Positions 2,680 through 50,153 of a stretch of DNA of 52,670 bases are shown here, one piece after another. How positions within the stretch are numbered: the first letter of the stretch is position 1; every line of letters starts with the position of its first letter. The notes under the pieces are model-generated. The model had not been told where the DNA came from. It ran no database searches and saw only the letters and a list, made by a program, of their open reading frames with translations. Source of the stretch: Nemertoderma westbladi (taxonomy: Eukaryota > Animalia > Xenacoelomorpha); the NCBI GenBank assembly GCA_032718475.1, contig JAUCBJ010007915.1, forward strand, positions 1-52,670. The letters are read 5' to 3'. The position numbers and the translations under genes were made by a program.

Positions 2680-2691
2680 TATATCCTTTAA
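2680..2691 (-). promoter_or_regulatory. Non-tRNA primer-binding site of element A (TTAAAGGATATA), complementary to LTR 3493-3504
   Basis: Directly abuts the LTR end and lacks TGG. Plus-strand tatatcctttaa (2680-2691) is the reverse complement of ttaaaggatata (3493-3504). Confidence 0.65.
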
Positions 2692-3944
2692 TGTTCGCGC
2701 TTTCAGACCTTTAGCAGTTTAACCCACCAAATTAAGATGTCTGCTAGATATTAAATCGGTTTTTAGTCTATGACAAGTATTTGATTCACTACACTAGTCG
2801 AAACCAATCTGTGCGCGATCATTCACCCGCTGGATATTCCCGGGAGATTGGGTTCGACGGTTTAATTTTATTGCTATGTAAGCCTAATGTATTATTCGAC
2901 TGACAGTATTATATAATCTCTGACAATATTATTCACCTTCGGGGAATATTAACAGTTCCTTTAGGACGTGGCGCTTTATCTATATAAACAGAGTTATGAC
3001 TTAAACTACTCACAACGATATGGCTTAATTATAATTCACATATATGGCGCATTCTTTAGGAATTGCTTCTTTAACAGACTCACTCATACACAATGCTGCA
3101 CAATACTGCACACTAATCTGCCAATCTTCACTGATTTTAGTCACATATAAAAGGAACACAGACTGACTCATGTAGGGTCTATCAAATAACATTAGATTCA
3201 CTTCAAACCACTTTAACATAAGTCACAATCGTTATTGGTAACCTTTCTCTCTTACCTTAGGTATATCAAGAATATTGGGTTTTCGGGGTTATTTCTCGTT
3301 ATTCCAATATAATAATTCATCAACCAATATAATGAATAACCAACAACAAATAGCAGTACACAGTATCGATTGAGCAGGTAATTTTAGCAGTTTCAGCAGT
3401 TATTAAAAGCCGTGTGTCAGCAGTCAGTGTATTCCCAGATCAGTGATTCCATGAGTTTGATCGGTACGTCAGTATGTATGATCAGTTAGCAGTTAAAGGA
3501 TATATGTCCTTATAATTAAACCTACTAGTGTAAGACTAAAAACTGAAACACGGAGGTGCCAAAAGCCGGTTCTTAGGCTCTGGGCAAAAACATAACACTG
3601 AACTACTGAGTTTCTGTATATACCTCCAACACAGAGACAACAAACGCTCTGATTGGTCAACCTGAACAACGAGAGAACAAAGAAACAAAGAAACGTCGAC
3701 GTGGCAATATCAGCTGCTAGCCGTCGTCATGGTAGCGACACTGTTTTCAAAGTATCCAGCTATTGCGTCACGAGATTGTGGATTATGTCCTCTAAAGTAC
3801 AAATACAGTACAAATACATAAGAAATGACTTTTATGTCCTCTAAAACACCAGTACAGCAAGGACACGGCCTTTTTATGCCTGGCAAACCAACTACAGAGT
3901 ACTTTAAGGGAAAATAACCGGCTAATTACGCAAAAGCTTTTACA
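2692..3944 (-). repeat. 5' LTR of element A (~1253 bp, TG...CA)
   Basis: Plus-strand termini tgttcgcgc...aagcttttaca match C's LTR termini tgtacgcgc...aagcttttaca. Internal blocks are shared (cattcacccgctggata, aacagttcctttaggacgtggcgc). Minus-strand CCAAT box at 3645-3656. Confidence 0.88.
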
Positions 3945-6852: not shown

Positions 6853-7488
6853 ATGCATTCGGGCCAGATATCAACATTGGGCATTCAGCGCCCAAATACC
6901 TCCACGGGCAGTTACAAATTTCGGCTGGTTTTGCTTGGAGATATGGGAGTTGGCAAATCTTGTTTGGCACTGCGGTTTGTCAGGAATCAATTCGTTACGG
7001 AGCACTTCACAACAGTCGGGGCTGCGTTCGTAACTCAGTCTGTCGTTGTGGATGACAACACAGTAAAATTTGAAATTTGGGATACGGCGGGACAAGAACG
7101 CTTCCACAGTCTGGCTCCATTGTACTACAGAGGTGCCGACGCTGCTATAGTCGTCTATGATGTAACGGAACGGGGAACATTTGATGGAGCGAAACAGTGG
7201 ATAAAAGAGCTACAATTACAGATGAACCCTAATACTTTGATAGCACTGACCGGAAATAAAGCGGATTTAGAGAGTAAAAGGATGGTTGAATTCAATGAAG
7301 GCAAAGCATTCTCAGAAGATAATAATCTTTTGTTTATGGAAACTTCAGCTAAAACCGCCATGAACGTTAATGAAATATTCCTCGCAATTGCAAGGAAACT
7401 CCCCAAAAAGCAGAATCCTACCGCGGCACGTGGGACGATAGATCTAACATCAGGGAAGAACAGTGGAAAATCTAAATGCAGTTGCTAA
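6853..7488 (+). CDS. RAB5: Rab5-like small GTPase (divergent, coding region without introns)
   Basis: G1 GDMGVGKS, switch TTVGAAF, G3 [21 protein letters not shown]4 GNKADL, G5 [22 protein letters not shown]-terminal CSC prenylation motif. First ATG at 6853; the true start could lie in an upstream exon. Confidence 0.9.
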
Positions 7489-18685: not shown

Positions 18686-18920
18686 TGACGCATCGTTTAA
18701 GATTGAGATTCTCTAATTATATATAAATTTTATGCAGATTTACTAAGTATTTTATTCAATTAAAAATTCCTTTTGGAAGGAAACACTTTTTGTCCCTAAT
18801 GTTAATTAACCGAAATTCAACTATTCTGCCTGATTGTGTCGAGTTTTGGACGAGATGTACGAAGATTGTATGAATTACAATCAATTGAAACTAGTAATGA
18901 GGAGTTACATAGCACTGTAG

Positions 18921-19477
18921 TGTTAGCGTATTCAATTCCGCTAACACCCCACAAAGTAAGCCGTTAAGCAATATTGGGGGCCACGAGGTTGGGTAATCAA
19001 CCACTCGTGCCACCCCAACAAAGTGGGAAGGAGAAACACACAATAGGGGTCAGGGGCCACACCCCTGACCGAGAGAGAGCAGCAGGAGTGAAGGGAAACA
19101 CTCCAAAGGGCGCCAACAGGGATATTAGCCAATGGGGGGCAGGCACCGGCTAGGTACCGCAATAACGGCCAAACCGTGCAATGTATATTATTAGGTATCA
19201 GTGATTCTTAGTTCAGTTATCTCATTGTGTTAGTCAGTTAGCTAGGGTAGAGCGGAGACTTCTATTACCGTCCTCACCTACCACCATTATCTGTACATAC
19301 CGTAGTACTTCAATTGTTATCTATCCATTTTATACTATACCTATCTCAACGTTTATATTATACCTTCATACATATTACCGAACATCAGAACTCTTAACGA
19401 ACCTTTTCATATACACGGCGGGGACGCTTAGGTAGAAAACTCAAACGGATAAATTGGGATCCGTAGATCCCGTCACA
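18921..19477 (+). repeat. 5' LTR of element B (557 bp)
   Basis: tgttagcg...cccgtcaca; nearly identical to 49597-50153 (roughly a dozen differences by eye). Confidence 0.95.
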
Positions 19478-19514
19478 GTAATAGAATACCAGCTGCTACC
19501 CACAGTAATAGAAG
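19478..19514 (+). promoter_or_regulatory. Non-tRNA PBS of element B (GTAATAGAA, duplicated), complementary to LTR 19259-19268
   Basis: No TGG after the LTR. gtaatagaa (19478-19486) and gtaatagaag (19505-19514) are reverse complements of (c)ttctattac in the LTR. Confidence 0.55.
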
Positions 19515-19543
19515 CTATCGATCTAAAGATAAACTGCAAAGAG

Positions 19544-20937: not shown

Positions 20938-22196
20938 TGTACGCGCTTTTGAAGACCTTTAGCAGTTTAACCTGCCAAAATTTATATGTCTTTTGGTTTA
21001 TAAATAGACTTTAGAAGATGACAAATATTTAATACCAATAAACACAACATTAGCAGAAGCCAGCCTAGTGCGCGTCCATTCACCCGCTGGATATACCCGG
21101 GAGACTGGATTCTGAGGGCTTAGATTATTATTGCAGTGTAAGCTTACTGTACTGTATTATTCGATTGATCGTTAATAAATAATTTCTGACTAATATTATT
21201 CACTTTCGGGAAATATTAACAGTTCCTTTAGGACGTGGCGCTCTATCTAGGTAAACAGAGATATGACTTATACTAATCACAACGGCAAGTCGGTAAGGCT
21301 TATGATTCACGTATGAGGCGCATTCTTTAGGAAATGCTTAGTTATCAATCATAATCATGCACACTACCGGTAACACACAATACTGCCCACTAATTTGCCG
21401 ACCGTCAATGATTTTTATCATATATAAAGAGAACAGCAACGGACCAATGTAGTGCTTATCAAATAGCATTAAATTCACTACATACACAATAATATAAGTC
21501 GCAATCGCTATATATAACCCGTCTCTCTAACCTGTAGTGTATCAAGAAAATTGGGAAATTTGGGTTCTTTATAAATATTCTCCAAATAATATTCAACCAA
21601 ACAATAGCAAATAGCAGTATAATAATGTATATTGAACCGATAATGTAAGACTGAATTGCGATCAGTTGATATGATTAGATAAGATATGATAACAGTTATA
21701 CGCTCTATAATTTAAGCCTACTAATGTTTCTTCTAAAGTATGAAAACGAATTGACTCTAGAGCCGGTGTTCCTGGCCTAGATAGCAACAACACAACAGTA
21801 TCAAAAAACAGTAAGACTGAACACTCCTAGTATGATCGACCGAATATCTACACGTCGACAGAAAAAATCGCTCTGATTGGCTCAAGCCAAACAAAGAACC
21901 ATGCGTCCAATGGCTGTTTCCATGCCAGCAACCAGCTGCTAGATGTCGCAATCTGAATCATCACGGCTAAGCTGTGAAAGGTATTTGGTGCATTGCAGGT
22001 TTTTTGCCTTACCATGTCCGCCAAAACACGTATATAGCAGAATGACTTTTATGTCCGTTAAAACACCTATAACGGTACCTTGCGGGCGAGGAGAATATAT
22101 ATATAGTTATAGAGCCTTTTAGAGTATTCCAGCGCCTAGGGGGGAAACTGGATTGCGAAGCAAAAGGGCCAGTTATATCCCACAGAAGCTTTTACA
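20938..22196 (-). repeat. 3' LTR of element C
   Basis: tgtacgcgc...aagcttttaca, direct repeat of 35685-36943; short purine tract GGGAGCGG precedes it on the minus strand. Confidence 0.96.
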
Positions 22197-22274
22197 CCGC
22201 TCCCAGAAAATGGGATTTGAGTCTATAAAATATACAAAATCACAGTTTCTAATATACGTAAATACTCTAAACAG

Positions 22275-23724
22275 TTAGTCTTTCTTGCGCGGACGGCGTT
22301 TACGCAGTTTTTTAAAGCTAGCCAGAGTCTTTTTCTCTTTGGGGCGAGCCACTTTACAAGGAGGGCTATAACTCCTGGGTGAAGGGTGCAATATGATTGC
22401 ATCAGAGGGTGTAGGATTATGGTCGGTGTATCCGCCAGTCGAAGTACCGGGTTGATTGACATCAACGTCAGGGGAGAGGGGTCTAACGGCTTTGAGAGCT
22501 CGTTTCAAGAAAGCCGCTCTTACGGGTCCTTTACGAGTGGTCTGAACGAGGGCCGTGGGTGGACCATAGGCAGTTAGAAACCTCCGGGGTTTAATGGTCC
22601 TTTCCAACTCGCGTTCGCGGGCTCGGTATTCGTAAGGCCGTCGATATACTTCCTGTAACTCGGGGTGTGAGTTAACAAACAAGTCTCCATAGTCCGGATC
22701 CTGACGGATATAATTGATTAAGTTATAGGAATGAAGGTCGCTAGGATTAACACTCCTGAGAAATTTGCGTACGAATTTGGTTGAAATACATTCTCCAACG
22801 CGCTTCAGTAGCTCGTAACTTGATATGCGTGATTTCTGTTCAACCGAAGCGAATAGATAAGGATGGAACGCATAAACTCCTTCGTAAGCGCGTCCGGGAT
22901 AATAGCGATGGCGCGAATCACAATGTAAATCAGCGTTCGCTTCCCAAGCTCTGATGTAACGTAGTGTGATCATTTCATCTACGCTTTCCAAATCGTGATT
23001 AAAAGGGCAGTCGAAACTGGCATGTCCCTTTAGTTGACAATGGTGACATTGAGTCATAAATTGAGGGCAAACCGCAAAGATATGCAAGTTATTGAGTCTG
23101 CAATATGCGCAATAAATTTCCCTAGTCGGTTGTTCTTGGAAATAGGAACAGCGGACGTTGGTGTCCATGGGCGTATCGTGGTCTCTCGATGCGCATAACC
23201 GACAACGTTGCCTAGAAACATAGTTGGCATGTCGATAATCGTACGCAGTGAGACACTGTGGACCTTGATACCATTCTATGATGTAATCGTTGTCGCTGTT
23301 CCGGGGCGCGATAGGCTGAATCTCTTCAGATTCTAGACATATTGGTTCGTCTTCCCAGTCTGTTACGAATAGAATTTTCGTGATCTATTTTCGGTTTATC
23401 GTTACGACTCCGCTGGGTATGATATTTAAATAGAACCATTTCCCTTTCGGTGTCTACATCGTCCGTATCATGTAAATCGATAGGATGGCCGGTAGTTAGG
23501 AAGTTCATATATGTACCATTACGATGCGTATAGCGAGCGGTGAATTTTCGATAGTCCAATTCATGCGTAAGTTGCTCTTGGGACATCGGCGGTTCGATAT
23601 AACAACCATCGTCCTCCGTAATGGTTGGATCGGCTTCACCGCGTATCAAGCTATCCACAAATGCTTGTAAAGGTAGAGTATATCGCTCCCTGATACCAAG
23701 ATCATCTTCTATCAACTCCGTCAT
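22275..23724 (-). CDS. Element C accessory 3' ORF, triple CCHC zinc-knuckle protein with a basic NLS-like tail; split by one frameshift near 23330-23385
   Basis: The frame of ORF 22275-23168 stays open back to ~23383 and overlaps ORF 23326-23724. Motifs CRLCASRDH..C, CAYCRLNNLH..C, CHHCQLKGHASFDC; tail KKLRKRRPRKKD. Confidence 0.7.
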
Positions 23725-25348: not shown

Positions 25349-28300
25349 TCACGTGGGGGAGTCCCTAGATGTTTGAGGAATTAGGGAGGTGGTCGTGGGA
25401 AGAGTGTCTTGCCTTCCATAGTTTCCAGAGAGTTCTCTGTCTCTTTCCAGTAAACATAAACGACCAACTGGGCGATTGAGTTGTTGCGTCTCAAAGATTA
25501 TGCCTGGCTTCTTGAAGTTACGCCGCATGACGACAAGTTCTACTGAGCGCACTAAACCATCATCCGAGATGTGAGTTTCGATGATACGACCTGTCTGCCA
25601 CCGTTTACGTGGGAGGTCTGGATCTACAATAAGCACCATATCTCCGGCGCTGACGTTTTCTTGCTGCGCAAACCACTTAGTTCGAAGTTGTAGCGTGGGC
25701 AGATAATGTTTCTCGAAATGGTCAGCGAAACGACGGGATAGCAACTGCATAAGTTGCCAAGTTCGACGGCAGTATTCGTCTCCGTCGGCAATCTCCGATC
25801 GTGGGAGCATGGCTACAGGTTTCTTCAGTAGGAAGTGCGCGGGTGTTAGCGCTTCTAAGGAATCGGGACTCGATGAGACTGGCATAAGCGGTCTCTCGTT
25901 GAGATAGGCAGCTATTTCCTCCATTAACGTCCGCAAAAGTTCGTCGGTGAGATACGCGCGGCATGGCACTATAAAGTGAAATGCGGTTTTGACACTTCGA
26001 ATTAATCTCTCCCAACTTCCTCCCCACCAAGGGGCGTCGGCGGCGTTGAAGGTCCAGCTAGACGCTGTTATCCTTAGCTGGTCGTCCACCTGTCTTTGGT
26101 TCCAGTCCTTCACGTAAGCCTGTATTTCGTTGTTGGCACCAATGAAGTTCGTTCCCTTATCCGATCTCATGGTATTACTCGTCCCGAAGCGAGCGATCTG
26201 TCGTCGTAAACTTAAGACGAAGCTGTTGGTAGATAGATCGTTCACCATATCGAGATGGATGGCTCTACAAGTCATGCACACGAAGATGACACACCATCTC
26301 TTGACTATAGTCCTAGCACGATATACTTCAATAGGGCCAAATAAATCTACACCAGTATTAGTAAAAGGTGGTTCATAGAAGCTTACTCGTTCCCTAGGTA
26401 ATTCTGCCTCTCGCTGTGTTAAAGGCCTACTGAATGCTTTCCTACAGGGTATGCAGTTCCTAAGAACTTGGTTCAGAGCTCTACGGGGTTTATCAAAATA
26501 ATAGCGAGTTCGAATTTCGCTAAGAATTCGTTCTCTACCAGCTTTACTTTACTGTGAACATCTACAATCATCTTGATTTGTACTTCAAGATTTCTAATAA
26601 GTATGGGGAATTTGGTGTCAAAGGATAAGGGCGCATTGGTGAGTCTTCCTCCAACACGTATTAGCCCATCTATCATTGTGCTCGAGAATCGATCCCTTAA
26701 GCGCATCTGCGGATTTCTCAACAACAGGAAATACTTTTCGGAATCCTCATAGCATTGCAGGAGTCTCAATATCTGCTTATTGGTTTCTTCATGCTCCTGG
26801 TGACTAATTTTCTCCTTTAGAAAACGGTCAGATGTCTTATATTTGGGTAAATTTGTAATAACATGAACTTGTGCAGATGTCAATGGAGCGTTATCACTAG
26901 TGGTCTTCGTCCTGGAGTAGTGATGATGAAAACATCGTCTTAAATATGTGACGGCTTTACAAAGCCGATTCCAGGAACTGTAATGATGCATTGCTCTCTG
27001 CAGCATGGGTGAGATTCCTTGCGAGACGTCTGGTATTCCAGATTTCCAATCTCTATCTCTAATTTCCACAACAGACTTATTTGTGTTGAGGGATTGTGGA
27101 TCCGAAGCATCATTCCCGGAAGTATGTAATACAGATAGATCGATAGTCGGTTTAAATAACTTCGATTTACTCGCCCGGGTTTTAGGTTTGACTGTCTCCG
27201 CTCCCTTGGCTTGTCTAATCTCTGCCGTAGTAAGGTGAGGAGGCCATTCATCCTCTTCCTTGCTCAGGAAGTCGGGTCCACCCAACCAATCTGGAGTATC
27301 TATCAGTTCCTGTGGAGTTGCTCCCCTGGAGGCGATATCGGCTGGATTAATCGTACCAGGGCAATGTCTCCATTGATCTATCTTTGTGCGACTAAGAATA
27401 ATAGCTACTCTGTTAGTAACAAAAACGCTGAACTGACAGACTTCATTGGTTAGATACTCCAACACGAGTAAAGCGTCGGTCCAATAAACCGTTTTCTCCA
27501 GTGGATAGTCGATTTGTTCCGTTACGTTCCGGCCGATGGCTGTAGCGTATAAAGCCGCCTTTAACTCCGCTCGAGGAACCTTTAACTTGTTGTTAATCAA
27601 TGCCTTAGAGGTAACCAAGGCGACTTTGATTCCATCCGGAGTTTCGACTCGCAGATATGCTACTATACCTATTCCCATGTCGCTGGCGTCTCCAAACACA
27701 TGGAGTTGATAAGAATACGTAGGAAGAACATGGCCAAAATATGCACGGGAAATTATAAAGTTCTCGATGGCAGGTAGAGAATCTTCCCATTTCATCCATT
27801 TCTTTAACAATTCTCCCTTAAGCGGATCGTCCCATGAGTGGTTTTCAAGCCACATTTGTTGCACTAAACTCCGAGCAATCAATATAACTGGGCTAATAAA
27901 TCCCAATGGGTCGAAATAAGTGCTCAGGATACTTAAACAAATCCGTTTGGTCCGAACTGGATTATCTCGCTGTTTTAACTGAAAAAACAGGATGTCTCTT
28001 TCAGTGTCCCACTTCAAGCCTAGTGTCTTGGTTTCAGGAAGATCGTCCTTTATTAAGTCTAGGTCCTTCGTTCCTCGGTCTTCTACCGGTATGGCTTCCA
28101 GAAACTCACGGGAGTTGCTAGTGAATTTCGTCAGTCGAAATCCACCTCTTTTCAAACACTCTACCGTTCCTTTCGCGACAGCTATGGCTTCTTCTACTGA
28201 TGGAAGGGACCTTAAATTGTCGTCCATGTATATATTACGTTTTATGTTGTCTATCACTTCCTTTGAGAAGGAGTCTCGGTTGTCATTCGCAGTGGTTCGC

Positions 28301-31300
28301 ACCACGTAGCAGGCGTTGGAAGGGCTTGATATGATTCCAAAAGCCTGGATGGTCATCCAGTACTCTACCGGTTTCTGATTGAGGTCTCCTTCAGGCCACC
28401 ACAGAAATCTCAGGCTGTCTCTATCTCTATCCAGCGCCTTGACTTGTAAGAACATTCCTTCTATATCGGAGGCGAACGCGATGGAATATTGTCTTAATCT
28501 CAAAAGTATTCCCAACAAAGATTGGAGTAAGTTGGGTCCTGGTAACAACTCGGAATTGAGGGATTGGCCCATATATAGGGCGGAGCCATCGAATACGACT
28601 CGTACTTCGTGGGGTTTACCGGGTTTGGGAACGTAATGATGTGTTAAGTAATACGTTCTCTCAGTCACTGGTGTTCCTTCCGGTACTCGCTCCGCGTATC
28701 CCTTTGTTATAAATTTCTTCAGCTGAGTTTGGTACATTTCTTTCGCTGAAGCATTAGCTGTAAGGCGTCGATGTAATTGAGCGATTCTTTTCTCTGCCAA
28801 GGGTCTGTTATTTATAAATCTAGGTTCTCGTTTTCGAAATGGTAGGCCGATTTCATATCTACCTTGATCCTTTAAAAAACGTGTAGTTGTTTCCTGGATT
28901 TGCTTGGCTCTTTCTTCTTCTATCGATAGAGCCTTATCATATGAATTGGGCTCTACCAGTTCCTGAGTAAAGAATCGTACGGCTAGTTCGTCCCGAGTTC
29001 TAGCGTTGTAGCGCTCTATCTCATCGTTTAGTTCGTCATTGTAAGCGATGGGTTCCGATGGGCGAATCAGTTGACATAGGTTCACCTGATTTTTCCAAGT
29101 TTGGTTTTCTGTAAGTAGGTCGATTGTGTTCTCTTCATCGAAGAGTTGGTAGATGTCATCATTATCTGAGGAGTATGGTGTTCCCTCAGTTAGTTCGTCC
29201 ACCTCACTGCTCTCCACTTCCCAATCGTTTACTTGGTATATTTGTTCTTGTGGCATTCTCTCTTCGAGAGTCCTGCGGGAAGGGCCAGTAAAGTACCAAC
29301 CTACTCTAGTTCTTACCGCATAGGTTTGCAGTGGCTGCGGTTGAGCAGGTCGTTTCTCTAATGTTTCGAGCGCCTCGTGCGCGTTTTGGCCGATGAGTAT
29401 TTGCACTCCAGGATAATCTGTCTGGAATCGAGGTATCTTAAGATGTTGGATGCTCTCATCCTCGTCCCAATTATAAAGGTCTGCTTGAGTAGTAGCGAAG
29501 TTCTTTATAGCCACCATTTTTACCGACCTTATACCTTGTGCTCCTAACTTATCCTGGGGGGTGGACAACACACCTACATAGTAGTCTGCCGTTAGGGTAG
29601 ATTTCCAAACCTGCATAATTCCTGACATATTCAATTTAGTCCGGAATTTGGGTTGTCCAGCAAAGATATCTTCGGCTAATTCTTGATCGATGAATGTTCC
29701 TGTGCTGCCGGAGTCAAGGAGTGCGTTCACTATGTAACTGTGGTTAGGACCGTGAACTCTTACCGGCACTACAGGAAATTCTCTGATTCCTACGTTGGAA
29801 GTTGGAACTTTCCAAGATGGTTGTTTGGCAAAAGTAGTTGGGGGAAACTCATTGTTGGTGTCCTTTTCATAAGTAAGTGCTCGATACACTGCGGTATTGA
29901 TTAGATAACAGGATTCGTTGGCGTCGGAGAATTCGTCAGTATAGAATCCTTCCATCTCAGATTCTTGATCAGTGTCGTTTACATCACTGAATTGGACATG
30001 TAGTTCGGGCTCACTTACCTGACTCTGTTTGTCTCGTTCGAACTCACTGTGTAACAAGATGTGATGTTTCGCGCCACACTTTGCACACTTTATGTCGGAG
30101 TAACAGGTTCGCCGTTGGTGTCCTGGTCTGAGGCAATTATAGCATAACCGCTTATCCCATACGACTGCACGTCTGTCTACAAGGGATTTCTTTAGAAATT
30201 CAGCACACGCACTCAAACGGTGGGTACCGTCGCACAGCGCACAGTTAGGTTTTATGTTACTCACTTTACCTTGGGTAAACTGATGCACTCTCGTTCTTTC
30301 TTCGGGTTTTCTTCGGTGCATTCTGTTAGGAGACTGAGGAGGGGTCTTGGCAACCTGTTCTCTCCTATCGTTGTTTCGAGCCTTATATTTACTTACATCT
30401 TTTGAGGTTTTGTCAACGTAGTAAGATCTCTCAGTGTCTTTCCCGCTGTCCTCTTCCTGAGAAGCTTGGCTTTCGCCGTCGTCAGTGTAACACACCGGTG
30501 TTACTCTTCTCCTAGAAGCGGGTTTCTCACTTACCTTATTTTCCGATGTTTTCTCTCTGGACTGCTTGATGAGTTGTAGTTTTACCTCACCATCTAAGAA
30601 GGACATGAGATCAGCCATGGTAGGGCTTCGTCGTTGTTGTTCATTCATGTACAACACTTTCTTGTCCCAGCGTGTACATACTCCACCCTTTGGTAAAGTA
30701 GAGACTACTGCTCCAATAACCATGGAACTCTGATATTCATGAGACTTACCTAACCAATCCAATTGTCTACAGATCTCTTGAATCTCATCGGAAAACTCTA
30801 TAATCCCGCTACTAAGGAAGTGTCGGGGGGCTACTAATTTGGCATACAAATACTTAGCTATGTTATCCTTGTTACCATACCTGATGTTTAATGTATCCCA
30901 AACTTGTCTTAATCCTTCTGGATGTCCAATAAACTTTAACGCCATTAACTTGGGAGGTCCTTCCAAGCACTTGATGAGGAACCTAAGTTTCTCTCCGTTA
31001 GATAGTACAGAGTTCTGTATGCTATCTTTGTAATATTCATTGAAAGGTAACCATTTCATCTCATCTCCATTGAATTTAACGATCTCTCCCACTTTGACCG
31101 CTTGGCGGGCTTCTGTTCTAGCCATCTGAGGCGTAAAGCTTTCTTGGGCCATCGTGTTATTTAATATCGAATTATCGTTATATAAATTTCTCGGATCATT
31201 GTCAGGTCTATAGGGAATATCATTAATAACAGGTCTATAATCACCCTTAATAGGGTTTGCTATAGGAGTTTCTACTTCACTAGCAGTATAGATGCGTGTA

Positions 31301-33453
31301 GGCTCCACACCTTCCGCATGTAATACTTCAGACCTAACAGGTTGACACAATGTTACAGGGGGTATTGGTATGCCTTTTTGTATATTGACTAATTTGTCGC
31401 GTTCCAGTGCGATACTTTGCTGCACTTCTTGCAACTCTGCCCTACCTTCCCTTACTGTTCCCTTAAGCTGGTGGACAGTCTCCTGCATCTGTCCGAGCAG
31501 GAGATTCATCCCCCGCCGTCCCTCCTCTACCCACTCAACCGCCGAAGCGGGAGTCGCCAACATTGTAGCGGGCTGACGCGGGACGACGGGAGACAAATCT
31601 TTGATTTCTCTCTCAGCTTCCAGGACAGGGATATTCTCATGGACTGTTCTACCGGCTACAGGCAGTGTAGTACTATGTAAAGGGAATTTAGAGTTAAGCT
31701 CTGGAAGTACAGGAGTTTCTAGCACAGGGGTGACTTTGGGAATGACAGGCCTAATTATTTCAGGCTCATCAACTATAGTAGGGAGTCTTTTGACCTTAAT
31801 AATTTGGTCTGTAGGTTCTATACTACTTAAGTCCGTGCTAGCTAGTTGTCTTCTAACAGCTGGGGGCAAATCAGGCAATTTGTGACGGTGAGATGTTTTT
31901 CTACACCTGCTTAGACGAGATCTATTTCCTCCGCCTTCAGGATCGGTGGTTTCGCTTTCTTCCGATGATGTGTATCCCTGGCGTTTGGGAGTAGATTTTC
32001 TCATCATCTGCATGTGACTAGCAGTTAACTGTTTATTTATGTTGTCTTGCGTCTCTTGCAGATTTTCCAACTCCAGTTGGGTAGTCTCCTCAGACGCTCT
32101 CCGTTCTGCTTCTGCCACTGCCTTTGCTGCCTTTCTTTCCACTTCTGCTTCTGCCATTGCCGCTGCTACTGCTGCTGTCTTTCTTTCCACTTCTGCTTCT
32201 GCCATTGCCGCTGCCGCTGCTGCTGCCTTTCGGTCCACTTCTGCTTCTGCCATTACCGCTGCTACTGCTGCCGCCTTTCGTTCCTCAATCCGTCTTTTCT
32301 TTACTTGTTCTTCTTGGACTCTAGTGAGGCGGAGTTTTTCATCAAATTCAGCTTGGTTAGCAGCTAACATTTCAGCATCGATTGAGTCTAACACACGCTG
32401 GGTTCCTTCACTATTAGGGGAAAGTCCAGACAGCCGTCTCCTCAACTCTTTGTCTCCTAGGAATCGCTGATAGTCGGACAGATAAATGTCTATGGCGTCT
32501 CTCGTTCGTGGTCTCTCTGCGGTCTCTTCGCCTTCCACTCGAGAAAGGGTGGCATCGGTTGGTTCTTCATAGGTTAGTCTCTCAGACAGCTGGGATTTCC
32601 ACTGGTCCGTTTCTTGTACTTTGAGACCTACCCGCTGGAACCAAGTTTTGACAGCAACCTGCAGCGACGTGTCCTGTCTTCTTTTGGAAGTTTCCTCAAA
32701 AGCTGATAGGATTAGTCGAATGCGTAGGGTTCTTTCGCGTACTTGGTATAGCAGTTCTTCCTGCTCTTGAGGTCCTTGGGGTTGTCGAAACAGTTGTTCT
32801 TCTAATCGCTCTAAGGAGCCGAAGAATCCCTGCACATATCCTGCTGCCGACCTCTTCCAAACAGCTGGATCCATCGTATCTTTAGCCACTCCCATCCTGT
32901 GTATATCTTCCCAAGTAGCCTCGGACAGATCTAACGGGAGTCCGGGTCCGGGAAAGTTCCATTGTGACTCGACAATAGACATCAATTCTTCCCTGGCGTA
33001 TCCCGCATAATTATCTTGGGTCGCTCGCTTATTTCTCGCCCAATCGGCTTGATGTTCTTCCACCGCAATCAATATAGTAGTTAGCACTGCGGCAGGAAGG
33101 GTGAGAAGGGGGTCCGAGTAGGCTTTAGCCGCCATCTGCAATCCGCGTTCGGGGGTCAGCTCGACAGTATCCGAATTACTGGAGCTATCGGATCGCTGGG
33201 AACAAGTTTCTTGACTAGGCTGTTGCTGCTGTGGGACAGCTGCTTCCTGGTTCCGTTTGACTTGGGCCCGAGTGCCGATGATAGACCTACGGTGTTGGAT
33301 TAGCTTAGGGTCTGATACTTCTACTGGAGGGATGACCTTTCTTTCAGTAGGAGGTGAGCTGAACTCCTTTCTTAATCGCTCCACACTCCTATCTGTGTCA
33401 CAGATGGTTGTATCGATTAGACTGTCTGATAGGTTTTGCTGGGTGTCAGACAT
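25349..33453 (-). CDS. Element C Gag-Pol polyprotein (Gag, aspartic protease, RT, RNase H, integrase), single frameshift near 26545
   Basis: Triple Gag knuckle CALC..H..C / CYNC..GH..C / CAKC..HH; LLDSGS protease; RT VRVVFDGS, SDIEGMF, YMDD (28219-28230); RNase H LHVFGDAS, VPRAEL; integrase GVDLFGP, RSDKGTNF, GGSWERLIRSVK; YLPTLQLRTKW. Confidence 0.95.
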
Positions 33454-34765
33454 GTTTAGCTATACAGTTGAATGCTTACTGCTATAGTTACAGTTAAAGC
33501 AAGTCTAGTAATTCAGTATGACCGTTGGCTTAGTACCGGTAATTTATTGCAGTATATTAGAATACCGGTATGCACTTATAATTTATATAAGTATTGTAAA
33601 CTAGGTTTATCACAGAGTACCGGTATATAAATTTAGCACAAATATATAAATATATAATAGGCCTATCGTGAATACCGGTATACAGCTTACACTTATAGTA
33701 TATATAAGTATAATTATGGACTAGAATTAATTACAGAGTACCGGTATGATTTCAGCTCAAATTTATAGAAATAAATATAATAAGCTTATGGTAAATACCG
33801 GTATGTCAATTATTTTAGAATAATTGAATTTCTGAATATTTTAGGGTTACTTGGTTACTTTAACTTACTTTATTACCGTTATTTAAGCAGTAGTCCAACT
33901 GATATTGAGACCTAGTTGTTGTATGGCAGGCCTACTATTTATAAATCGTTTGAGTTGATTTATAATAGATATATACCCGTTTAAAAGGGGTTTTGTCAAT
34001 ATTTGAAATAAATGTTATTATTTCTGGGGGAGTCACTACACAGAAGCTGTGCGCTCTCAGTGAAGTGCTACCTATGGGACACTAAAACAGATAATTCTAA
34101 TTTACCTAAGTTACTTAATACTACAAATTGCTTACGATACGGGTGAGATTAAATCTCTAATTAAACACAACAAAATATTACGTACGAATTTTTAGGGTAA
34201 TTTTACAGGAAGTCTACAAACCAGTCTAACAAAGGGTTAGAATTCGGTTTATTACAACGGACAGGGTACTATGGTATTTGAAAATAATAAGTAGTAGTAA
34301 ATATATTGCACTGTCCAGATAGGAAAATACCACCGCCTGACAACCTATAGCCGTATCGCTATAGGTACTACGTTATGTATCACGGAGTGTTCCTACCTAG
34401 AAGTTAATTATCGCGGACTACCAGATCCAACGTGCCTATTAACCACTTTACAACACAAATATACTGCCTACACACTAATTACTTTCGGAAAGCACTGTAC
34501 ACTAAACCCTAAATTAGGTACAAGTACTGGTACAACAAATAATCAGTAGTTAAATATACTTGAACAGTTAAAAGAACCACGGCATCTGCTGGAGTGACCG
34601 AAGCACAAAGTCACCAGTCTTTTCCTACGCCAAGCAGCCCGTGTAGTACCGGGGTTAATTTAACTATAACGGTATGTGTAACAAACACAATTACTGTAGG
34701 AATAAACTTGGGGACATGAATGTTGCGAATAATCGCATAAACTCTGAATAATATATATTACGCTA

Positions 34766-35673: not shown

Positions 35674-35684
35674 ATAACTGTTAT
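35674..35684 (-). promoter_or_regulatory. Non-tRNA PBS of element C (ATAACAGTTAT), complementary to LTR 36436-36446
   Basis: Abuts the 5' LTR and lacks TGG. Plus-strand ataactgttat is the reverse complement of ataacagttat at 36436-36446 (and at 21689-21699 in the other LTR). Confidence 0.65.
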
Positions 35685-36943
35685 TGTACGCGCTTTTGAA
35701 GACCTTTAGCAGTTTAACCTGCCAAAATTTATATGTCTTTTGGTTTATAAATAGACTTTAGAAGATGACAAATATTTAATACCAATAAACACAACATTAG
35801 CAGAAGCCAGCCTAGTGCGCGTCCATTCACCCGCTGGATATACCCGGGAGACTGGATTCTGAGGGCTTAGATTATTATTGCAGTGTAAGCTTACTGTACT
35901 GTATTATTCGATTGATCGTTAATAAATAATTTCTGACTAATATTATTCACTTTCGGGAAATATTAACAGTTCCTTTAGGACGTGGCGCTCTATCTAGGTA
36001 AACAGAGATATGACTTATACTAATCACAACGGCAAGTCGGTAAGGCTTATGATTCACGTATGAGGCGCATTCTTTAGGAAATGCTTAGTTATCAATCATA
36101 ATCATGCACACTACCGGTAACACACAATACTGCCCACTAATTTGCCGACCGTCAATGATTTTTATCATATATAAAGAGAACAGCAACGGACCAATGTAGT
36201 GCTTATCAAATAGCATTAAATTCACTACATACACAATAATATAAGTCGCAATCGCTATATATAACCCGTCTCTCTAACCTGTAGTGTATCAAGAAAATTG
36301 GGAAATTTGGGTTCTTTATAAATATTCTCCAAATAATATTCAACCAAACAATAGCAAATAGCAGTATAATAATGTATATTGAACCGATAATGTAAGACTG
36401 AATTGCGATCAGTTGATATGATTAGATAAGATATGATAACAGTTATACGCTCTATAATTTAAGCCTACTAATGTTTCTTCTAAAGTATGAAAACGAATTG
36501 ACTCTAGAGCCGGTGTTCCTGGCCTAGATAGCAACAACACAACAGTATCAAAAAACAGTAAGACTGAACACTCCTAGTATGATCGACCGAATATCTACAC
36601 ATCGACAGAAAAAATCGCTCTGATTGGCTCAAGCCAAACAAAGAACCATGCGTCCAATGGCTGTTTCCATGCCAGCAACCAGCTGCTAGATGTCGCAATC
36701 TGAATCATCACGGCTAAGCTGTGAAAGGTATTTGGTGCATTGCAGGTTTTTTGCCTTACCATGTCCGCCAAAACACGTATATAGCAGAATGACTTTTATG
36801 TCCGTTAAAACACCTATAACGGTACCTTGCGGGCGAGGAGAATATATATATAGTTATAGAGCCTTTTAGAGTATTCCAGCGCCTAGGGGGGAAACTGGAT
36901 TGCGAAGCAAAAGGGCCAGTTATATCCCACAGAAGCTTTTACA
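35685..36943 (-). repeat. 5' LTR of element C (1259 bp)
   Basis: Direct repeat of 20938-22196; TG...CA termini; minus-strand CCAAT box at 36616-36627. Confidence 0.96.
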
Positions 36944-39900: not shown

Positions 39901-42900
39901 ACATACCGGTGGGGGGGGGGACAGGGTGACATTCCCCCATCACAATATCAACAATATACCCCAATAGGAGCAAGAACAACGAACCCCTTGAATGGAAATA
40001 GGTCATGCGACACAGAAATATGGAGGGGGCCGCTACCCCCAATGATATACCCAAGCCAGAGGAAGACAGGAAATAGGACGGACGGACCGCACCTAACAGG
40101 ATAAACTATACAACATCCATCGAACCCATTGGAAGCGCAGGCGATGGGAATGGCCACGTTAATAGATGCGCTAAAGACAAGGATCGAGCTACCACCCGTG
40201 GAACCATTTAAATTCGATGGGAGTAGGCCAGAAGAATATCTACAGTTTCGGCGCATGTATAGTAACGAAATACTAACAAAGAACTTGACGCAGGCGGAGT
40301 GCCTAAAATATCTCCAAGTATACACACGAGGCCCAGCATACGACATCGTGAGGCAATACCAGGGTATAGAGGGTGGCTTCACGACGGCATGGTGGGCATT
40401 GGACAGGGAATACGGTCACCCAGCCAAGATCATCCGGCAAACCCTGAGAGGCATAACATCGGGTGGCCTACAGGATAGTCCCGTTGGCATTAAGACATTC
40501 GCGAACAAGGTCGAGAAGGCGCTAATCGTGTTAAAGACGCTAGCCGCGCCATACGAACTCAACGCGTCCAACAACATCACCACGATAGCGTAGGCACTAC
40601 CGATGTGGCTGCGCAACAAGTGGAGGAAAATCGCTTTCTCCACTCGAGATAGGAAGGGTGCGGAACCGGGTTTAGAAGAAATGTCAAGCTTCTTAAACTA
40701 CGAAGCTGAACTAATAACCGACCCAGTCTATAGTGAGGACAGCCTGGGAAAGGGACCAAGAACCGATTACCATAGACCGAAACCAGAACACAACACGTCA
40801 AACGCATTACCAAGGTCAGGCAATCATTGCCATAAGCAGCGATGCAGGGGACTGCAAGTCCACAGGTAGCCGAAGGTAAGACCACACCATGGAACGGACA
40901 GGGGAATAATAACAACACAAATAAATATAACCCTAGTACGCCCAGTAGGCCGAACCCAAACAACAAGAATAGTAGGGACTTTGGTGCAAATGCAACTGCG
41001 ATACGCAATGCACTGCATAAGGAGGGCTACAACCCAAAGAGCAAATGCCAGCTACATACAAATGCACTTCATCAAACCATGAACTGCAGGTACTGGCAAG
41101 CGCTACCCATGGAAGATCAGGTAGAATATGCGGCGAGAAATGAGATCTGCTCGCGATGTGTGATGAGTGGACATAGAGCTAGGCAATGCAAGGAGACGCC
41201 GGTCAAGTTCGGTCAAAGGAAAGGCCAAACGATGGCAACGAGCACGGTAGGGGCGAAAAAGAGAGGAACGGTGCTACTTGGGGTAGTACCAGTGCGAGTA
41301 ATTGGAGAAGGCAATCGATCAGTAACCACACTGATGCTGGTTGATAGTGGAGCTGCCTTCACATTAATCGAGGATTGGGTGGCCGAAGAGATAGGATTGA
41401 GAACGAGGCCGAGTAGAATGGCGGTAACAACCATCTCCAGCAAAGATGAGGTCCTGGAGATGAGAACCGGACGGTGCGCCATCGCAGCAATAGCACCAGG
41501 ATGCGACTATGGGGCGAGCATCGACCCCATCCAAGTGATAGAGTCAATAAACATCAATGCCAGACGGCCAACCAACATCGAGGTCGAACAATATAAATTT
41601 GTGGATGATATCGACTTCTCAATCCCAGAGGTGGACGTTAGGAAGGTATCCATCATAGTAGGAATGGACTGCCCAATGGCCCACGAAAGAATGCAAACGG
41701 TCTTCGGCGAAGACAAGCAGTGTGACCCGGTGGCGATACTGACACCATTCGGGTGGACGCTGAGTGGCCCAATCAAGAGCAAGATACCATTTAGGATGTC
41801 GGAGACATCAGGATGCATGTTCGCGGGAACTATGCAGGAAATGGGTGATGAGAGAGCAGAGGAGCAGCTTAAGAGACTGCTCAGACAGGATTTTGAAGGA
41901 TTAAAGGAGATCGGGGTCGGGACCTCGGTGGAAGACAAACAGGCTCAACAAAGCGTAGAGGAGTCTATGAAATGCGATGAAGGGCGGTATACCATAGGGA
42001 TGGTATGGAAGCTACCAAAGCTACCATTGCCCGATAATAAAGGGATGGTGCTCACGAGGCTTCGTAAGTTGACGCAGACACTAAAACGGAGCCCCGAGAA
42101 GAATGAGTACATCCACAGAACAATTAAGAAGTACGTCGAGAAAGGATGGGCCGTGGAGTTACCGGTCGACGAACCAAACACGGATAGGACATATTACCTA
42201 CCACTTCACGTGGCTTTAGACCCGAAGAAAGGTAAACTGCGGATGGTAGTTGACGCATCGGCAAAGACCAACGGAAAATGCTTAAACGACTATCTACTAG
42301 AAGGTCCGAACATATACAACTCAGGGATAGAGGTCCTACTTAGATTTAGAAATGTGAAACACGCCTTCACGTGTGACATAGAAGGCATGTTCAACCAAGT
42401 CCGTGTAACGGAGGAAGATAGCGACAGTCAACACTTCTTATGGTACAACGGTGACGAAGAACCGTCGATAATACCGACGTACAAGATGATAGTACAGAAC
42501 ATGGGAGCCAAGTCGTCTTCAAGGGGAAGGAGGATAGATACAGCACTAGGGCCGTCGATATGATTCGACGCGGCTTCTACGTAGACGACGGAATGGAGTC
42601 TGGAAATACGGTTAAGGAGATACTGTACACCGGGCGCGAGGTTCGCGACATCCTAAAAGGATCCGGCTTTAACCTGACCAAATTCCAATCCAGTTTGGAG
42701 GAATTTATCAAGGCGATAGTGGACGAGAGACCAGAATCGACCATGGATAATCCCACAACGGCCAAAGGGCAGGACATGGCGAGCAAGAGGACAGAGTCTC
42801 AACAGAAGGCACTGGGAATCGTGTGGAACAGAGAGACAGATGAACTGAAGTACCAGCTGAGCCAGGAGGGCGCAGACATCCACACAAAGAGAGGCTATGT

Positions 42901-44758
42901 GTCATACATAGCAAGAATATACGATCCCCTAGGTCTAGCATCCCCACTATTAGTCACGGGGAAACAGATACTCAAGAGAGTATACAAACTGAAGGAAAGC
43001 AAAGCGAAGCGAAGTCAACGCCGCCAGATTCAGCATCAGTTCCCAAACTAGAATTGACAGCTGCCAGACTAGGAGTTAGGGCCACAGCCTACCTAGTGGA
43101 TACTATTCCCAACATAGTGGAGACACACTACTGGACGGATTCCATGGTAGTGCTTGGTTGGCTACATAACGAAAGGACGAGATACCCTATATTCGTCACG
43201 AATAGGGTGGACGAAATAAGGGCGACCACAGAATTGGAAAGGTGGCACTACTGCCCAAAGGACGAGAACCCAGCGGTCTTGTTATCGAGGGGCGTGGTAC
43301 GCCACACTTTCTTGAAGAAGGAAGTATTGTGGCAACACGGGCCACAGTTTCTGAGCGACAAGGAGGCCTGGCCGCCGATGAGAAAGGTGGACCCGGGCTC
43401 GGGAGAAGCAGTATCAGAGGGAGAAGAGGGAGATTCAGAGGGAGAAGAGATATACTCCCAGATGGTGAGGGAGATAAGGGACGTGCAACCTAAACTAGAA
43501 GAACTGTGCGATAACCTGATGGATAAACTCCTCAGATACAGCTCTAGTTGGTATAAGACCAGGAAATTAGTGGCGTACTGGAGAGCCTTCGGGAATTTCC
43601 TCGCGGGAGTTGGCAAAGGCAAGAAGATCAGGACAACCATAGATCTGGAAGGAGCGGCTAAAGCAGTCATCAGCTATGAACAACGGAAGAACTACGGCGA
43701 CGAGGTGGAACGCGTCGGTAAGCAACAGCATCTTCGACGGGACAGCGAGTTAATCACGCTGTCACCACAACTTAATGATGATGGGATTCTAGTAATGAAC
43801 TCTAGGGTGGGCTACAACAACAGCATCGTTGTACCGCCGAAGCCCATCATCATCCCAACAGGATCGCCAATAGTCCACCAGATTATCTGGGACTCCCACA
43901 AGTCGATATTGCACGGGGGCACCAACCGAACCCTTACGGAGATACGGAGGACCTTTTGGGTCAAGCAGTTGAGGAAGAAGGTAAAAGCGGTAGTGGGGCA
44001 GTGCCAGACCTGCCGACGAGCGAAGAAGGAGCGAGCCACACAGGAGATGGCACCACTACCGGCGAGTAGGGTAAGACAGCACGACCCGCCATTTACGCAT
44101 TGCGGTGTGGACATGTTCGGGCCGATAAAGATCAAAGTGATGCGGCACACGGAGAAACGCTACGGTATTATCTTCGTATGTAACAACATGCGGGCGGTAG
44201 GGATAGAACTCGCCCAAGATGCAACCGCATCAGCATTCATTAATGCATTAGAAAGGTTCAGAGACCGCAAAGGTGGGACGATCGCAGTAATGTACTCCGA
44301 CAGCGGAACCAACTTTGTGGGAGCAGAGAACGAGATGGCAGAGGCCTTGGACATCTTGGAAGGGGAGGAATTCAGGGCAGCCATGAGACGACGACAAGTA
44401 AAGTGGGAGAGAAGGACGCCGTATGCACCACATACACTGCCAGAGTTGGAAGGTCGCTAAAGCGATAAGCGCAGAGTATTGGAGGAGGTGGATTGAGGAA
44501 TACCTACCCACGCTTCACAAAAGAAGCAAGTGGAGGAAGTCGAATAGGGAGTTAAGAGAGGGAGATCTCGTAATCGTTACGGATGATACTATCATCAACA
44601 ACCAGTGGCGGTTGGCGAGAGTTGTAGGCACTTACTCCGATGAGGACGGAAGAGTCCGATCGGTAGAAGTGCGGATAGGTGGCAAGATAGGTTCGAAAGA
44701 CAGAAAAACCTACAGGAGAGCTGTAGGGAAATGCTGTCTATTAGAAGGGGCACCTTAG
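36949..44758 (+). pseudogene. Element B gag-pol remainder, disrupted by stops, frameshifts, deletions and a duplication
   Basis: Gag FKFDGSRPEEY, CQLH..H..C / CSRC..GH..C; protease LVDSGA; RT KLRMVVDASAK, CDIEGMF, YVDD (~42578); integrase HKSILHGG..CQTC, GVDMFGP, YSDSGTNF; YWRRWIEEYLPTL. Confidence 0.92.
37987..39241 (+). repeat. ~1.25-kb tandem duplication within B gag (second copy; first copy is 20730-20937 + 36949-37986)
   Basis: Near-identical sequence differing mainly in poly-G run length; contains the empty target site agggccgtggataa with a single GCCGT at 38190-38194. Confidence 0.93.
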
Positions 44759-45763: not shown

Positions 45764-48328
45764 ATGGCGGGGAAGCTGATCAGGAAGAGAAAGGCGGAGT
45801 CAGGAGGAAAGGAGATACTGGTGGATTTCACCAAGAGGCATCCGGAAGAGAGGACGAGGGGATACTATGACCGTTTAGGAAAGGGTCACTCAGCATGAGC
45901 GCTACAGGACCACTTCAGGGAGATGCATGAACAGCGGCTGGTCGGGACCTACGGGACGCCGTCGCTGGACAACGCGATCTTCGAGCATTTCCACTACGTG
46001 ATGAAAGGGGACAAGGCGAAGTTCGGGATTCCGAAGTACGCGAGAGAGTCACCGAGGAAAGATTGGAGGAGGTTCATAGAGTCCGGCAACAGGGGAGGAT
46101 ACATGATCCTAGACGACGAAGGGACCGTGGAAGACGAGGAGGGTTCAAGGAGAGGATCGGCAGGATCGGCCAGGACCATACTCCTACATTTGGCCGCGCC
46201 AAATGGGGACATTTTCCTATTTGACCTGGGAACGTATGGGAAGAAGGATGGGCCGAAGTTGGACCGGCTGCCGAGGGCGGTGCAGGTCCTAGTAAGGGAG
46301 AAGTCGACGACGAAAGTGGGATCGGCGATTCGCGAGGACGCGGAGAGAATCATCGGTCCGGACGCCACCAACCTCCTGGATATGCAGAAGGTCTTCATGG
46401 CTATGACAGCACCAGACGGGTTAGGAGTAGTCGGGAACACAGGCCAATGCGGAGCGGTGGCAATGGGCCAGCTATTGGGGCTCGTATGCCACAAACCGAT
46501 GGACTGGGGGAAGTTCAGGGAGGAATACGGAGCAGAACTAGCGAACTCGCTAAAGTGGGGAGCGAGACCGGGAAAGCAAGAGGTGTATCAATTCCGAAGA
46601 GGAGCGATAAAGGTATATCAGAAGCGATATATCCTGCAGGAAGATTGGATAATGATAAGTTTGCTTAACTTATTCATGACCGTGGTTATCGAGAGGGAAC
46701 CAGCGGCATTTCTGTTATCGGGATCACCCCTAAGCTACAGAAGAGCCTTTAAGACGGCTTTCGACGGTCTGGTAGACCACCCGGGGCTGAAGGGCGAGTC
46801 GGTGTACTACAACAGCCGACATCTGGTAGACGGGGAGATAGATACGCCGTATCAGAGATGGGAGGAGCTAGAGACGGATAGACGAGAGGCGAAGCGACTG
46901 GAAGAAGTCGCTAGACGGGAAAGGATAGAAGCAGAGGAGAGGGAGGAGGAGGCCAGGACGCAGAGTCACGGCTTCGAGGAACAGGCAGGCTTAGATGAAC
47001 TTCGTTGGGCTTCATCAGGGAGTTCGGGGGAGTCTCTAGGGCGAGAACTGGGATGGACGGTGGGATCGCCGAAACAGTCAACGTCGGGGTTGCAAGCGAT
47101 GCCCATACCAGCGGGCGCCGAAGGCGACCAACCGCTAAGGAAGTTAGGGGAGCTAGAGGGATGGAGAGCTACGGGCGAAAGCCAAGGCGGGAAGGGACAT
47201 AGTGGATCCACCGGGATACCGGGGTTGGAGACACTGCCAGAGGAGGATGAATACGACGACGAGTTCGGAGAGATGCCGCCCATCGGGAGGATAGGCCACT
47301 CGGACACGGATTGGGTTGGCGGGAGGGTGGTGACGGCCAGTGGGGCGAGGACCTTCTGGGATAGACCCAGCAAGCGGGCCTGGGTGCACGAGGAACCGGC
47401 GATGGATTTCGCGGGGAGCACTATCAGGTTGGGCGAGCAACCAGGGACGGCACCTCGGGTAGTATTCGGGGAGACGATGCCCGAGAGGGGCGAGGAGATC
47501 GACGTAGACAGGGACACTAACGTCCAGAAGTTCGCCTACCAGCGACTCCACAGACCGCGGAGATCGCTTGGGACGGAAGACGACGTGGGGCGGGATACAT
47601 TGGTGCTCGGCTGTGACTACTTTGGGAGACAGACCCACCAGGAAAGGAGCTGTTTGTACCGATTCCAGAAAGGGACTAGTTGTCTCTACTGCCGCGAGTC
47701 GAGCCACAGGATGGGGGCGTGTCCACGGTTGCATAACCGATGTTCGAAGTGTAACTTTCGGGGACACTACGAACGCCAGTGCGACCGGATGGACGATGAA
47801 GAGAAGTTCAGAATCTTCGAGGAGTGGGCCGACGTTGGGGCCATGACGCGGCAACGCATGAAGGCCCAGGAGTTCAAGTGGGGTTTCTTCCTTATCAATC
47901 AGGAGGCTCACTTGGAAATCATAAAGCAGAGGTTACCGTTTACCTATCAAGAGGTAGCAACGGCGGCGTCGTATGCCGGGGTGATAAATACACAAAGGTA
48001 TTTGGACAGGTGGATGCCATAGAACCGAGGGGAGTTTAGGGATTTCCTGGCGATGCACGTGCCGCGGGCAATGAAGATGATCTTATGGGACACCACCAGG
48101 GGGAGACAACAGGGCCACACGGAGGGGCCACCCGCGAAGCGATATCGGGAGCTGATAACGCCGGCACCCAAGGAGCCAACGACCGGGAGCAGTAAGGAGG
48201 TGGCGGCGAGAGTCCGAAGACAGAAAGCGGATCCCAGAGGAGCGGTAGTGATCAGGAAACGACCCAGGGAGGAGGACGGCAAAGGGAAAGACTTGAGGTG
48301 GTTCCCAAAGTCAGGGGGGATAAACTGA
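45764..48328 (+). CDS. Element B accessory ORF: DEDDy-like 3'-5' exonuclease + coiled coil + triple CCHC module (~854 codons, two in-frame stops at ~45896 and 48020)
   Basis: ATG 45764, ORF 45923-48022 and ORF 48053-48328 share one frame. Motifs MILDDEG, ILLHLAAPNGDIFLFDL, LPRAVQVLV...KVGSAIRED, LLDMQ, QKRYILQED; knuckles CLYCRESSH..C and CSKCNFRGH..C. Confidence 0.78.
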
Positions 48329-48819: not shown

Positions 48820-49375
48820 TGTTAGCTTATTCAATTCCGCTAACACCCCACAAAGTAAGCCGTTAAGCAATATTGGGGGCCACGAGGTTGGGTAATCAAC
48901 CACTCGTGCCACCCCAACAAAGTGGGAAGGAGAAACACACAATAGGGGTCAGGGGCCACACCCCTGACAGAGAGAGAATAGCAGGAGTGAAGGGAAACAC
49001 TCCAAAGGGCGCCACCAACAGGGATATCAGCCAATGGGGGGCAGGCACCGGCTAGGTACTGTAACAACGGCCAAACCGTGCAATATATTATTAGGTATCA
49101 GTAATCAGTTATTCAGTTATCTCATTTGTGTTAGTCGGTTAGCTAGGGTAGAGCGGAGACTTCTAAGACCGTCCTCGCCTACCACCATTACCTGTACATA
49201 CTACACTTCAATTGCAATATATTACACCATTTATACTATATCCATTTAACGTCTACATTATACATATCAGAGAATCAATAACACCAGAACTCTCAAACTC
49301 TTTCCACACAAACGGCGGGGACGCGTACTTTGAACAACCGCGGATAAACCGGGATCCTCCTTGGATCCCGTCACA
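48820..49375 (+). mobile_element. Solo LTR of a B-related subfamily inserted in B's 3' region
   Basis: tgttagc...cccgtcaca, homologous to B LTRs but with a diverged 3' half; flanked by TSD TGGGG (48815-48819 and 49376-49380). Confidence 0.9.
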
Positions 49376-49596: not shown

Positions 49597-50153
49597 TGTT
49601 AGCGTATTCAATTCCGCTAACACCCCACAAAGTAAGCCGTTAAGCAATATTGGGGGCCACGAGGTTGGGTAATCAACCACTCGTGCCACCCCAACAAAGT
49701 GGGAAGGAGAAACACACAATAGGGGTCAGGGGCCACACCCCTGACCGAGAGAGAGTAGCTGGAGTGAAGGGAAACACTCCAAAGGGCGCCAACAGGGATA
49801 TTAGCCAATGGGGGGCAGGCACCGGCTAGGTACCGCAATAACGGCCAAACCGTGCAATGTATATTATTAGGTATCAGTAATCAGTTATTCAGTTATCTCA
49901 TTGTGTTAGTCGGTTAGCTAGGGTAGAGCGGAGACTTCTATTACCGTCCTCACCTACCATCATTATCTGTACATACCGTAGTACTTCAATTGTTATCTAT
50001 CCATTTTATACTATACCTATCTCAACGTTTATATTATACCTTCATACATATTACCGAACATCAGAACTCTTAACGAACCTTTTCATATACACGGCGGGGA
50101 CGCGTAGGTAGAAAACTCAAACGGATAAATCGGGATCCGTAGATCCCGTCACA
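49597..50153 (+). repeat. 3' LTR of element B (557 bp)
   Basis: Direct repeat of 18921-19477. Confidence 0.95.

Follow-up and report, generated by a model that had tools for sequence, protein, structure and literature searches.

This locus raises the question of how LTR retrotransposons start minus-strand DNA synthesis when the PBS beside their 5′ LTR is not of the TGG-initiated tRNA type. The window, by which we mean the whole stretch of 52,670 nucleotides analysed (Nemertoderma westbladi, GCA_032718475.1, contig JAUCBJ010007915.1), holds three LTR elements, A, B and C, identified by self-BLAST and ORF scans. According to the ICTV account, the PBS in the family to which we assign them is 18 nt long and fits host tRNA-Arg or tRNA-Gly, and BEL/Pao replication is poorly understood (PMC8742986). 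Tf1, according to the available parts of PMC7175516, primes with the first 11 bases of its RNA after RNase H cleavage; the mechanism set out there and in the available parts of PMC5341516 runs from fold-back through RNase H cleavage where the duplex ends to extension into U5. An excerpt of PMC6317226 names Tf1/sushi, Tcn1 and the copia TAR lineage as cases in which self-priming is described or predicted. Our analysis, which followed up a preliminary description made from the window alone, suggests that A, B and C likely prime minus-strand DNA with an LTR-derived piece of their own RNA and not with a tRNA.

The main parts of the three elements are the following.

35685..36943, minus strand: 5′ LTR of C, 1259 bp, TGT..ACA
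20938..22196, minus strand: 3′ LTR of C
26473..33459, minus strand: gag-pol frame of C, 2328 codons, with DUF1759, protease, RT and the Peptidase_A17 region
25349..26548, minus strand: integrase frame of C, with Integrase_H2C2 and DUF5641, in a frame different from that of the long ORF
2692..3944, minus strand: 5′ LTR of A, an element truncated by the window start
18921..19477, plus strand: 5′ LTR of B, 557 bp, with CCAAT at 19129, a TATA-like motif at 19184 and an Inr-like motif at 19213
49597..50153, plus strand: 3′ LTR of B, approximate ends
40105..44758, plus strand: gag-pol of B in several frames, with DUF1759, protease, Peptidase_A17, integrase and DUF5641

C is a minus-strand insertion inside B, bounded by a 5-bp target duplication (ACGGC) and by TGT..ACA LTR ends, and its two LTRs are 99.9% identical. 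B is flanked by TGTAG/TGTGG, a target duplication with one mismatch. A, of whose two LTRs the window holds only the 5′ one, represents a sister family of C with 78–84% DNA identity in internal parts and about 75% in the LTR. Since B and C both carry DUF1759, Peptidase_A17, an integrase zinc finger and DUF5641, they are, judged by their sequences, BEL/Pao (Belpaoviridae) retrotransposons; the Pao-type Gag/Pol with the order protease-RT-RNase H-integrase is found in both, and A is included through its DNA identity to C. The assignment made in the preliminary description is thus confirmed by LTRs, target duplications and Pao-type Pfam domains, and a Ty3/gypsy identity of B was rejected because its Pol domains are Pao-type. 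The Pfam matches of these elements include no chromodomain, and the LTRs contain no open frame of more than 90 codons. B and C are distant from each other (32–41% identity in RT-RNase H). C has 1427 homologues at E ≤ 1e-30; among the 120 matches listed all carry PF05380, and the named ones come from fish, echinoderms and cnidarians at about 40–44% identity.

Several other features of the window were recorded. A 369-codon frame in C (22275–23384, minus strand), between integrase and 3′ LTR, is without a Pfam match. A 707-codon frame in B (45899–48022, plus strand), 3′ of integrase, has neither a Pfam nor a PDB match; it bears Cys/His-rich motifs toward its end, and the atlas look-alikes of its residues 60–330 include 3′-5′ exonuclease clusters (PF01612, score 0.92), which serve as a lead only. 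The gag region of B is duplicated beside the C insertion (36944–37986/38190–39241, 1 kb, 98.6%; 20720–20937/37977–38194, 218 bp, 98.6%). A satellite at 10865–15800 repeats a 36-bp unit some 130 times, with about 95% identity between copies, and its plus strand is open over 1624 codons. A Ras-family GTPase (6832–7488, plus strand) and a fibrinogen C-terminal domain protein (17588–18685, plus strand) are encoded by frames free of interruptions, which are host genes or retrocopies.

The argument for self-priming begins with the sequences that adjoin the 5′ LTRs and their complements within the LTRs.

35674..35684, minus strand: PBS of C, ATAACAGTTAT, abutting the LTR with no gap and no TGG
36436..36446, minus strand: LTR segment of C complementary to its PBS (predicted self-primer), 751 nt from the LTR end
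2680..2691, minus strand: PBS of A, TTAAAGGATATA, no TGG
3493..3504, minus strand: LTR segment of A complementary to its PBS, homologous to that of C, 801 nt from the LTR end
19478..19486, plus strand: PBS of B
19260..19268, plus strand: LTR segment of B complementary to its PBS, 9 bp, 209 nt from the LTR end

In all three elements the PBS directly follows the terminal CA of the LTR and is never TGG-initiated, as had been claimed, and no tRNA gene was found in the window. The pairings reported earlier for C and A also hold: positions 35684–35674 pair with 36446–36436 at 11/11 positions, and 2691–2680, a different PBS, with 3504–3493 at 12/12. Both LTR sites lie 6 nt past a common TAGTAGG..TTATA block, 152 nt (A) and 181 nt (C) downstream of a CCAAT, which agrees with the homologous position proposed for them, and their distances from the LTR end correspond to the loop of about 750–800 nt that had been estimated. 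A predicted 13-bp hairpin directly follows the C PBS.

The comparison of A with C provides the covariation check called for in the preliminary description. Four of the 11 paired positions differ in the LTR site, and the same four are changed in the PBS to the complementary letter, so that 4/4 site changes are compensated; one extra PBS difference, at position 12, is unpaired in C. Swapped partners fail to pair (−0.6 and +0.9 kcal/mol, against −11.6 and −10.6 kcal/mol for the own pairs). Random placement would yield the compensated pattern about 4 times in 100,000, a figure that only excludes chance, because under self-priming the change of site and PBS is a single event. The C PBS is an interrupted palindrome, which weakens the case from C alone, with a PBS-PBS duplex at −5.2 and the PBS-site duplex at −10.6 kcal/mol; the A PBS is not palindromic.

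The same pattern had been claimed for the distant element B, and here the claim stands in part. B does have an own-LTR complement (19478–19486 with 19260–19268, 9/9 paired) and no TGG, and it is nevertheless the weakest case, because the pairing extends over 9 bp only and the proposed start at 19258, itself doubtful, adds two mismatching positions. Among B-family contigs, a T>A change at 19265 within the LTR site occurs in 7 and 3 contigs in two runs, with no partner change in the PBS among those listed; few of these contigs reach past the LTR end, beyond which depth falls about fivefold. A motif comprising the LTR end and PBS of B (19473–19514) is repeated 28 nt downstream, with a second copy from 19505 that could pair over 10 bp, yet it is not the partner that folding predicts.

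The window also contains a further copy of this LTR.

48820..49375, plus strand: solo LTR of a B subfamily, flanked by TGGGG, approximate ends

Two letters are changed at its predicted primer site. This solo LTR sits in B's own 3′ region, with a near-identical U3 and strong divergence past the primer site. Contig depth at 80% likeness drops sharply near the predicted primer sites of B and C (19151–19384 and 21608–21724), which suggests that this part of the LTR varies most between subfamilies. No splice-type joint end was seen inside the LTRs (18800–22300) among the contig joints listed, which is no evidence either way.

Distant relatives extend the comparison well beyond the window. They were collected in a scan of metagenome contigs that covered 29 of 64 parts, from which the best 80 of 560 confirmed stretches were taken; these 80 loci, 37–44% identical to C in RT-RNase H and stemming largely from a few contig series, fall into 53 families. 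Two scans of viral contigs found no relatives. The PBS and enough of the LTR could be read in 29 of the 53 families, and every one of the 29 has an own-LTR complement of 10–15 bp (26 found by script rules and three after manual adjustment), a result that strengthens the self-priming reading. Among the 24 families that lack the PBS or enough of the LTR, four show one matching half by eye, with no complete counterexample seen; L080, with an unvalidated 12-nt match, was excluded from the count. PBS sequences vary between families, none of the readable relatives has a TGG-initiated PBS after correction of the LTR end of L068, and the duplex begins 0–5 nt past the LTR end.

What sets most relatives apart is a predicted intron. 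In 25 of the 29 families the complement forms only when the LTR is joined at a predicted GT-AG splice junction, and in four it is contiguous; in 21 of the splice-spanning families the best unspliced match is only 5–9 bp. In 11 families the LTR end is fixed by a direct repeat, independently of pairing, and no tRNA-type PBS was found. Contiguous complements here measure 6–9 bp, and joining a GT donor to an AG acceptor raises them to 11–15 bp in nine; the other two reach 11 bp, L020 with a looser acceptor filter and L068 with a later LTR end. The remaining 18 of the 29 had their LTR ends chosen jointly with the pairing (for L060 a sister contig later bore out the choice), and the splice filter was relaxed once in the light of first results. 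Fifteen of these 18 families have complements of 10–15 bp, 12 spliced and three contiguous. L037 pairs over 12 bp (spliced), L040 over 11 bp (contiguous) and L048 over 10 bp (spliced, with a donor outside the filter). Because the complement depends on a predicted splice junction, the pairing would act at the RNA level; a repeat at the DNA level cannot explain it.

The predicted LTR introns measure 66–530 nt, and spliced duplexes draw 4–9 nt from before the intron and 3–8 nt from after it. From the duplex end to the LTR end the relatives span 46–203 nt (360 with an ambiguous acceptor; one LTR is split by a contig end), and a poly(A)-like hexamer follows the duplex by 6–116 nt in 20 of 24 relatives, a count made without a control. 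In an unrooted RT-RNase H tree of 28 loci the four contiguous loci form one group (94/93) nested among lineages that bear the intron, so that loss of the intron is the simpler reading in their case; C forms a long, unplaced branch. Two structural peculiarities were seen among these loci. An intact element at L054:6817–7357 has identical LTRs terminating in TA, not CA, and in L009, L047, L058, L059, L062 and L076 an LTR lies between the integrase end and a new gag start, as in tandem elements or collapsed assemblies.

Could such matches arise by chance, or by selection among candidates in AT-rich LTRs? The short 9-bp pairing of B, the adjustment of filters once results had been inspected and the 10-bp matches in 16 of 812 cross-family PBS-LTR pairs would speak for this explanation. 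By contrast, 11 of 14 elements whose LTR ends were set independently have an own match of at least 11 bp, a length reached by 5 of 392 cross pairs; over all cross pairs the figure is 9 of 812 (5/392 and 4/420), and eight of these nine are tree neighbours with similar PBSs. Shuffled PBSs, allowing offsets of 0–5, reached the observed length in 4/2000 (A), 19/2000 (C) and 21/2000 (B) cases, and 13 host flanks gave at most 6 bp. In a blind held-out scan, matches of at least 10 bp turned up for 7 of 15 regions and for 25 of 210 cross pairs; in L038 the top match was not the true site; the eight misses comprise four 3′ LTRs with no PBS behind them, three that failed the narrow splice filter and one contiguous case. 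The own matches at independently set ends and the compensatory changes between A and C contradict chance for A, C and the relatives, and we regard it as very improbable.

Two other explanations accept the pairing and differ in what it does. It might be a structural or regulatory RNA helix, acting in packaging, dimerisation or translation control, while a host tRNA half or another host RNA primes. The quasi-palindromic C PBS resembles a dimer signal, many PBS duplexes begin with GT or AT, and half-tRNA priming is described for Ty1/copia lineages in the available part of PMC6317226. Against this, the duplex ends within 0–5 nt of the LTR end, where synthesis must start, in 32 of 32 elements, and the PBS tracks the own LTR of each element and not a common host RNA; we hold this explanation to be unlikely. 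About equally unlikely is an LTR-derived primer that acts in trans, as a separate short RNA (from a second genome copy, a solo-LTR transcript or a small RNA) annealing to the PBS. The 750–800 nt loop of A and C is long, an Inr-based start abolishes their predicted fold-back, the families have very high copy numbers and a solo LTR is present in the window; against this, family-specific matching is simplest in cis, and fold-back is predicted with high probability if the RNA starts at the site. We therefore retain priming by a piece of the element's own RNA as the preferred reading.

Where that RNA begins is a separate matter. The preliminary description took the LTR sites to be transcript 5′ ends, and for this the folding and promoter motifs point in different directions. 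With an RNA that starts at the site, the predicted fold-back probability in A and C is 0.88–0.93; the duplex is lost with more than 15 extra 5′ nucleotides in C and with 3–15 in A, so that a start within about 0–15 nt of the site is needed, in keeping with the preliminary description. This hint is weak, since RNA ends tend to pair in such folds. On the other side, Inr-like motifs lie 97–121 nt upstream of the site in A and C, and an Inr-based start reduces the probability of duplex formation to 0; a TATA-like hexamer 10 nt upstream would, if used, place the start past the site. B behaves differently, as its duplex folds only with at least 15 nt of extra 5′ sequence. Because of this folding and the spacing of TATA (19184) and Inr (19213), we favour for B a predicted start some 45 nt upstream of its LTR site over one at 19258.

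Further ideas about the long A and C loop were examined and dropped. The C U5 segment folds at z −2.7 relative to 20 shuffles, and a conserved rod structure in the U5 of A and C is unsupported, as the folds are not kept pair by pair (26 of 249 aligned pairs in common and 62 broken). A U5 intron that would shorten the loop was rejected because the matching acceptor has no AG in A and because a spliced U5 would be lost upon copying. The donor-like AG/GT site common to both U5 segments (near 36279 and 3256) may serve a subgenomic RNA.

On the model of Tf1, the transcript would fold its 5′ part back onto the PBS, the element's RNase H would cut the RNA where the duplex ends on its 3′ side, and RT would extend the cut end into U5. 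The primer would then be copied into the new PBS, which would keep both sites matched. Most relatives would have a primer only once the host has spliced out the LTR intron, whereas A, B and C carry a contiguous site. With the intron upstream of the cut, progeny would receive it through the 3′ LTR copy of the RNA, and that copy would have to stay unspliced; if it were spliced, an intron-less element would result whose site is contiguous, like those of A, B and C. We propose with moderate confidence a broad BEL/Pao branch of aquatic animals that dispenses with tRNA priming: the spliceosome would usually build the primer from an LTR intron, only the spliced 5′ end would start replication, and the unspliced 3′ LTR could not compete. 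Intron-less lines, namely the four related loci and possibly the window elements, would have come from a spliced form copied back, and A and C would close their duplex over about 800 nt.

How does this compare with known systems? Tf1/Tf2 of Schizosaccharomyces pombe, Tf1/sushi and Tcn1, all Ty3/gypsy chromoviruses, resemble A, B and C in having a PBS of about 11 nt beside the 5′ LTR that is complementary to the own LTR RNA, with no tRNA involved (PMC7175516, PMC5341516 and PMC6317226, in their available parts). Unlike these, A, B and C have a Pao-type Pol, so that they may work like Tf1 and are not members of its group. They also differ from Tf1 in that a primer made of the first 11 nt of the RNA is improbable in B, in the 750–800 nt loop of A and C, and in the intron spanned by the complement in most BEL/Pao relatives, none being mentioned for Tf1 in the parts of those accounts at hand. 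The TAR lineage of Ty1/copia (Houba, Osr-1) is a likewise sequence-based prediction of self-priming outside the Tf1 group; it consists of plant copia elements, and the excerpt of PMC6317226 mentions no splice junction. With the Belpaoviridae of the ICTV, A, B and C share LTRs, Gag, the order protease-RT-RNase H-integrase and Pao-specific Pfam families, while the 18-nt tRNA-Arg or tRNA-Gly PBS is absent in them and in the 29 readable relatives, so that membership rests on Pol (PMC8742986). We found no report of BEL/Pao self-priming in the literature outside subscription journals, Repbase/GyDB entries and supplements, and word searches in the available text of PMC554778, PMC3118150 and PMC6238403 returned no discussion of the PBS.

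As far as sequences can tell, the likely self-priming is a variant of a known mechanism, new for a family described as tRNA-primed and apparently splice-built in most readable relatives. Self-primed elements would evade silencing by PBS-directed tRNA fragments. If true, self-priming across many families would revise the tRNA-primed description of BEL/Pao and would explain elements that seem to be without a PBS. It would also inform the question whether LTR elements inherited self-priming from an ancestor or acquired it repeatedly; a self-priming ancestor has been speculated about in the part of PMC3601003 available. A splice-made primer, if true, would link reverse transcription to the RNA processing of the host and would account for the survival of an intron within a retroelement.
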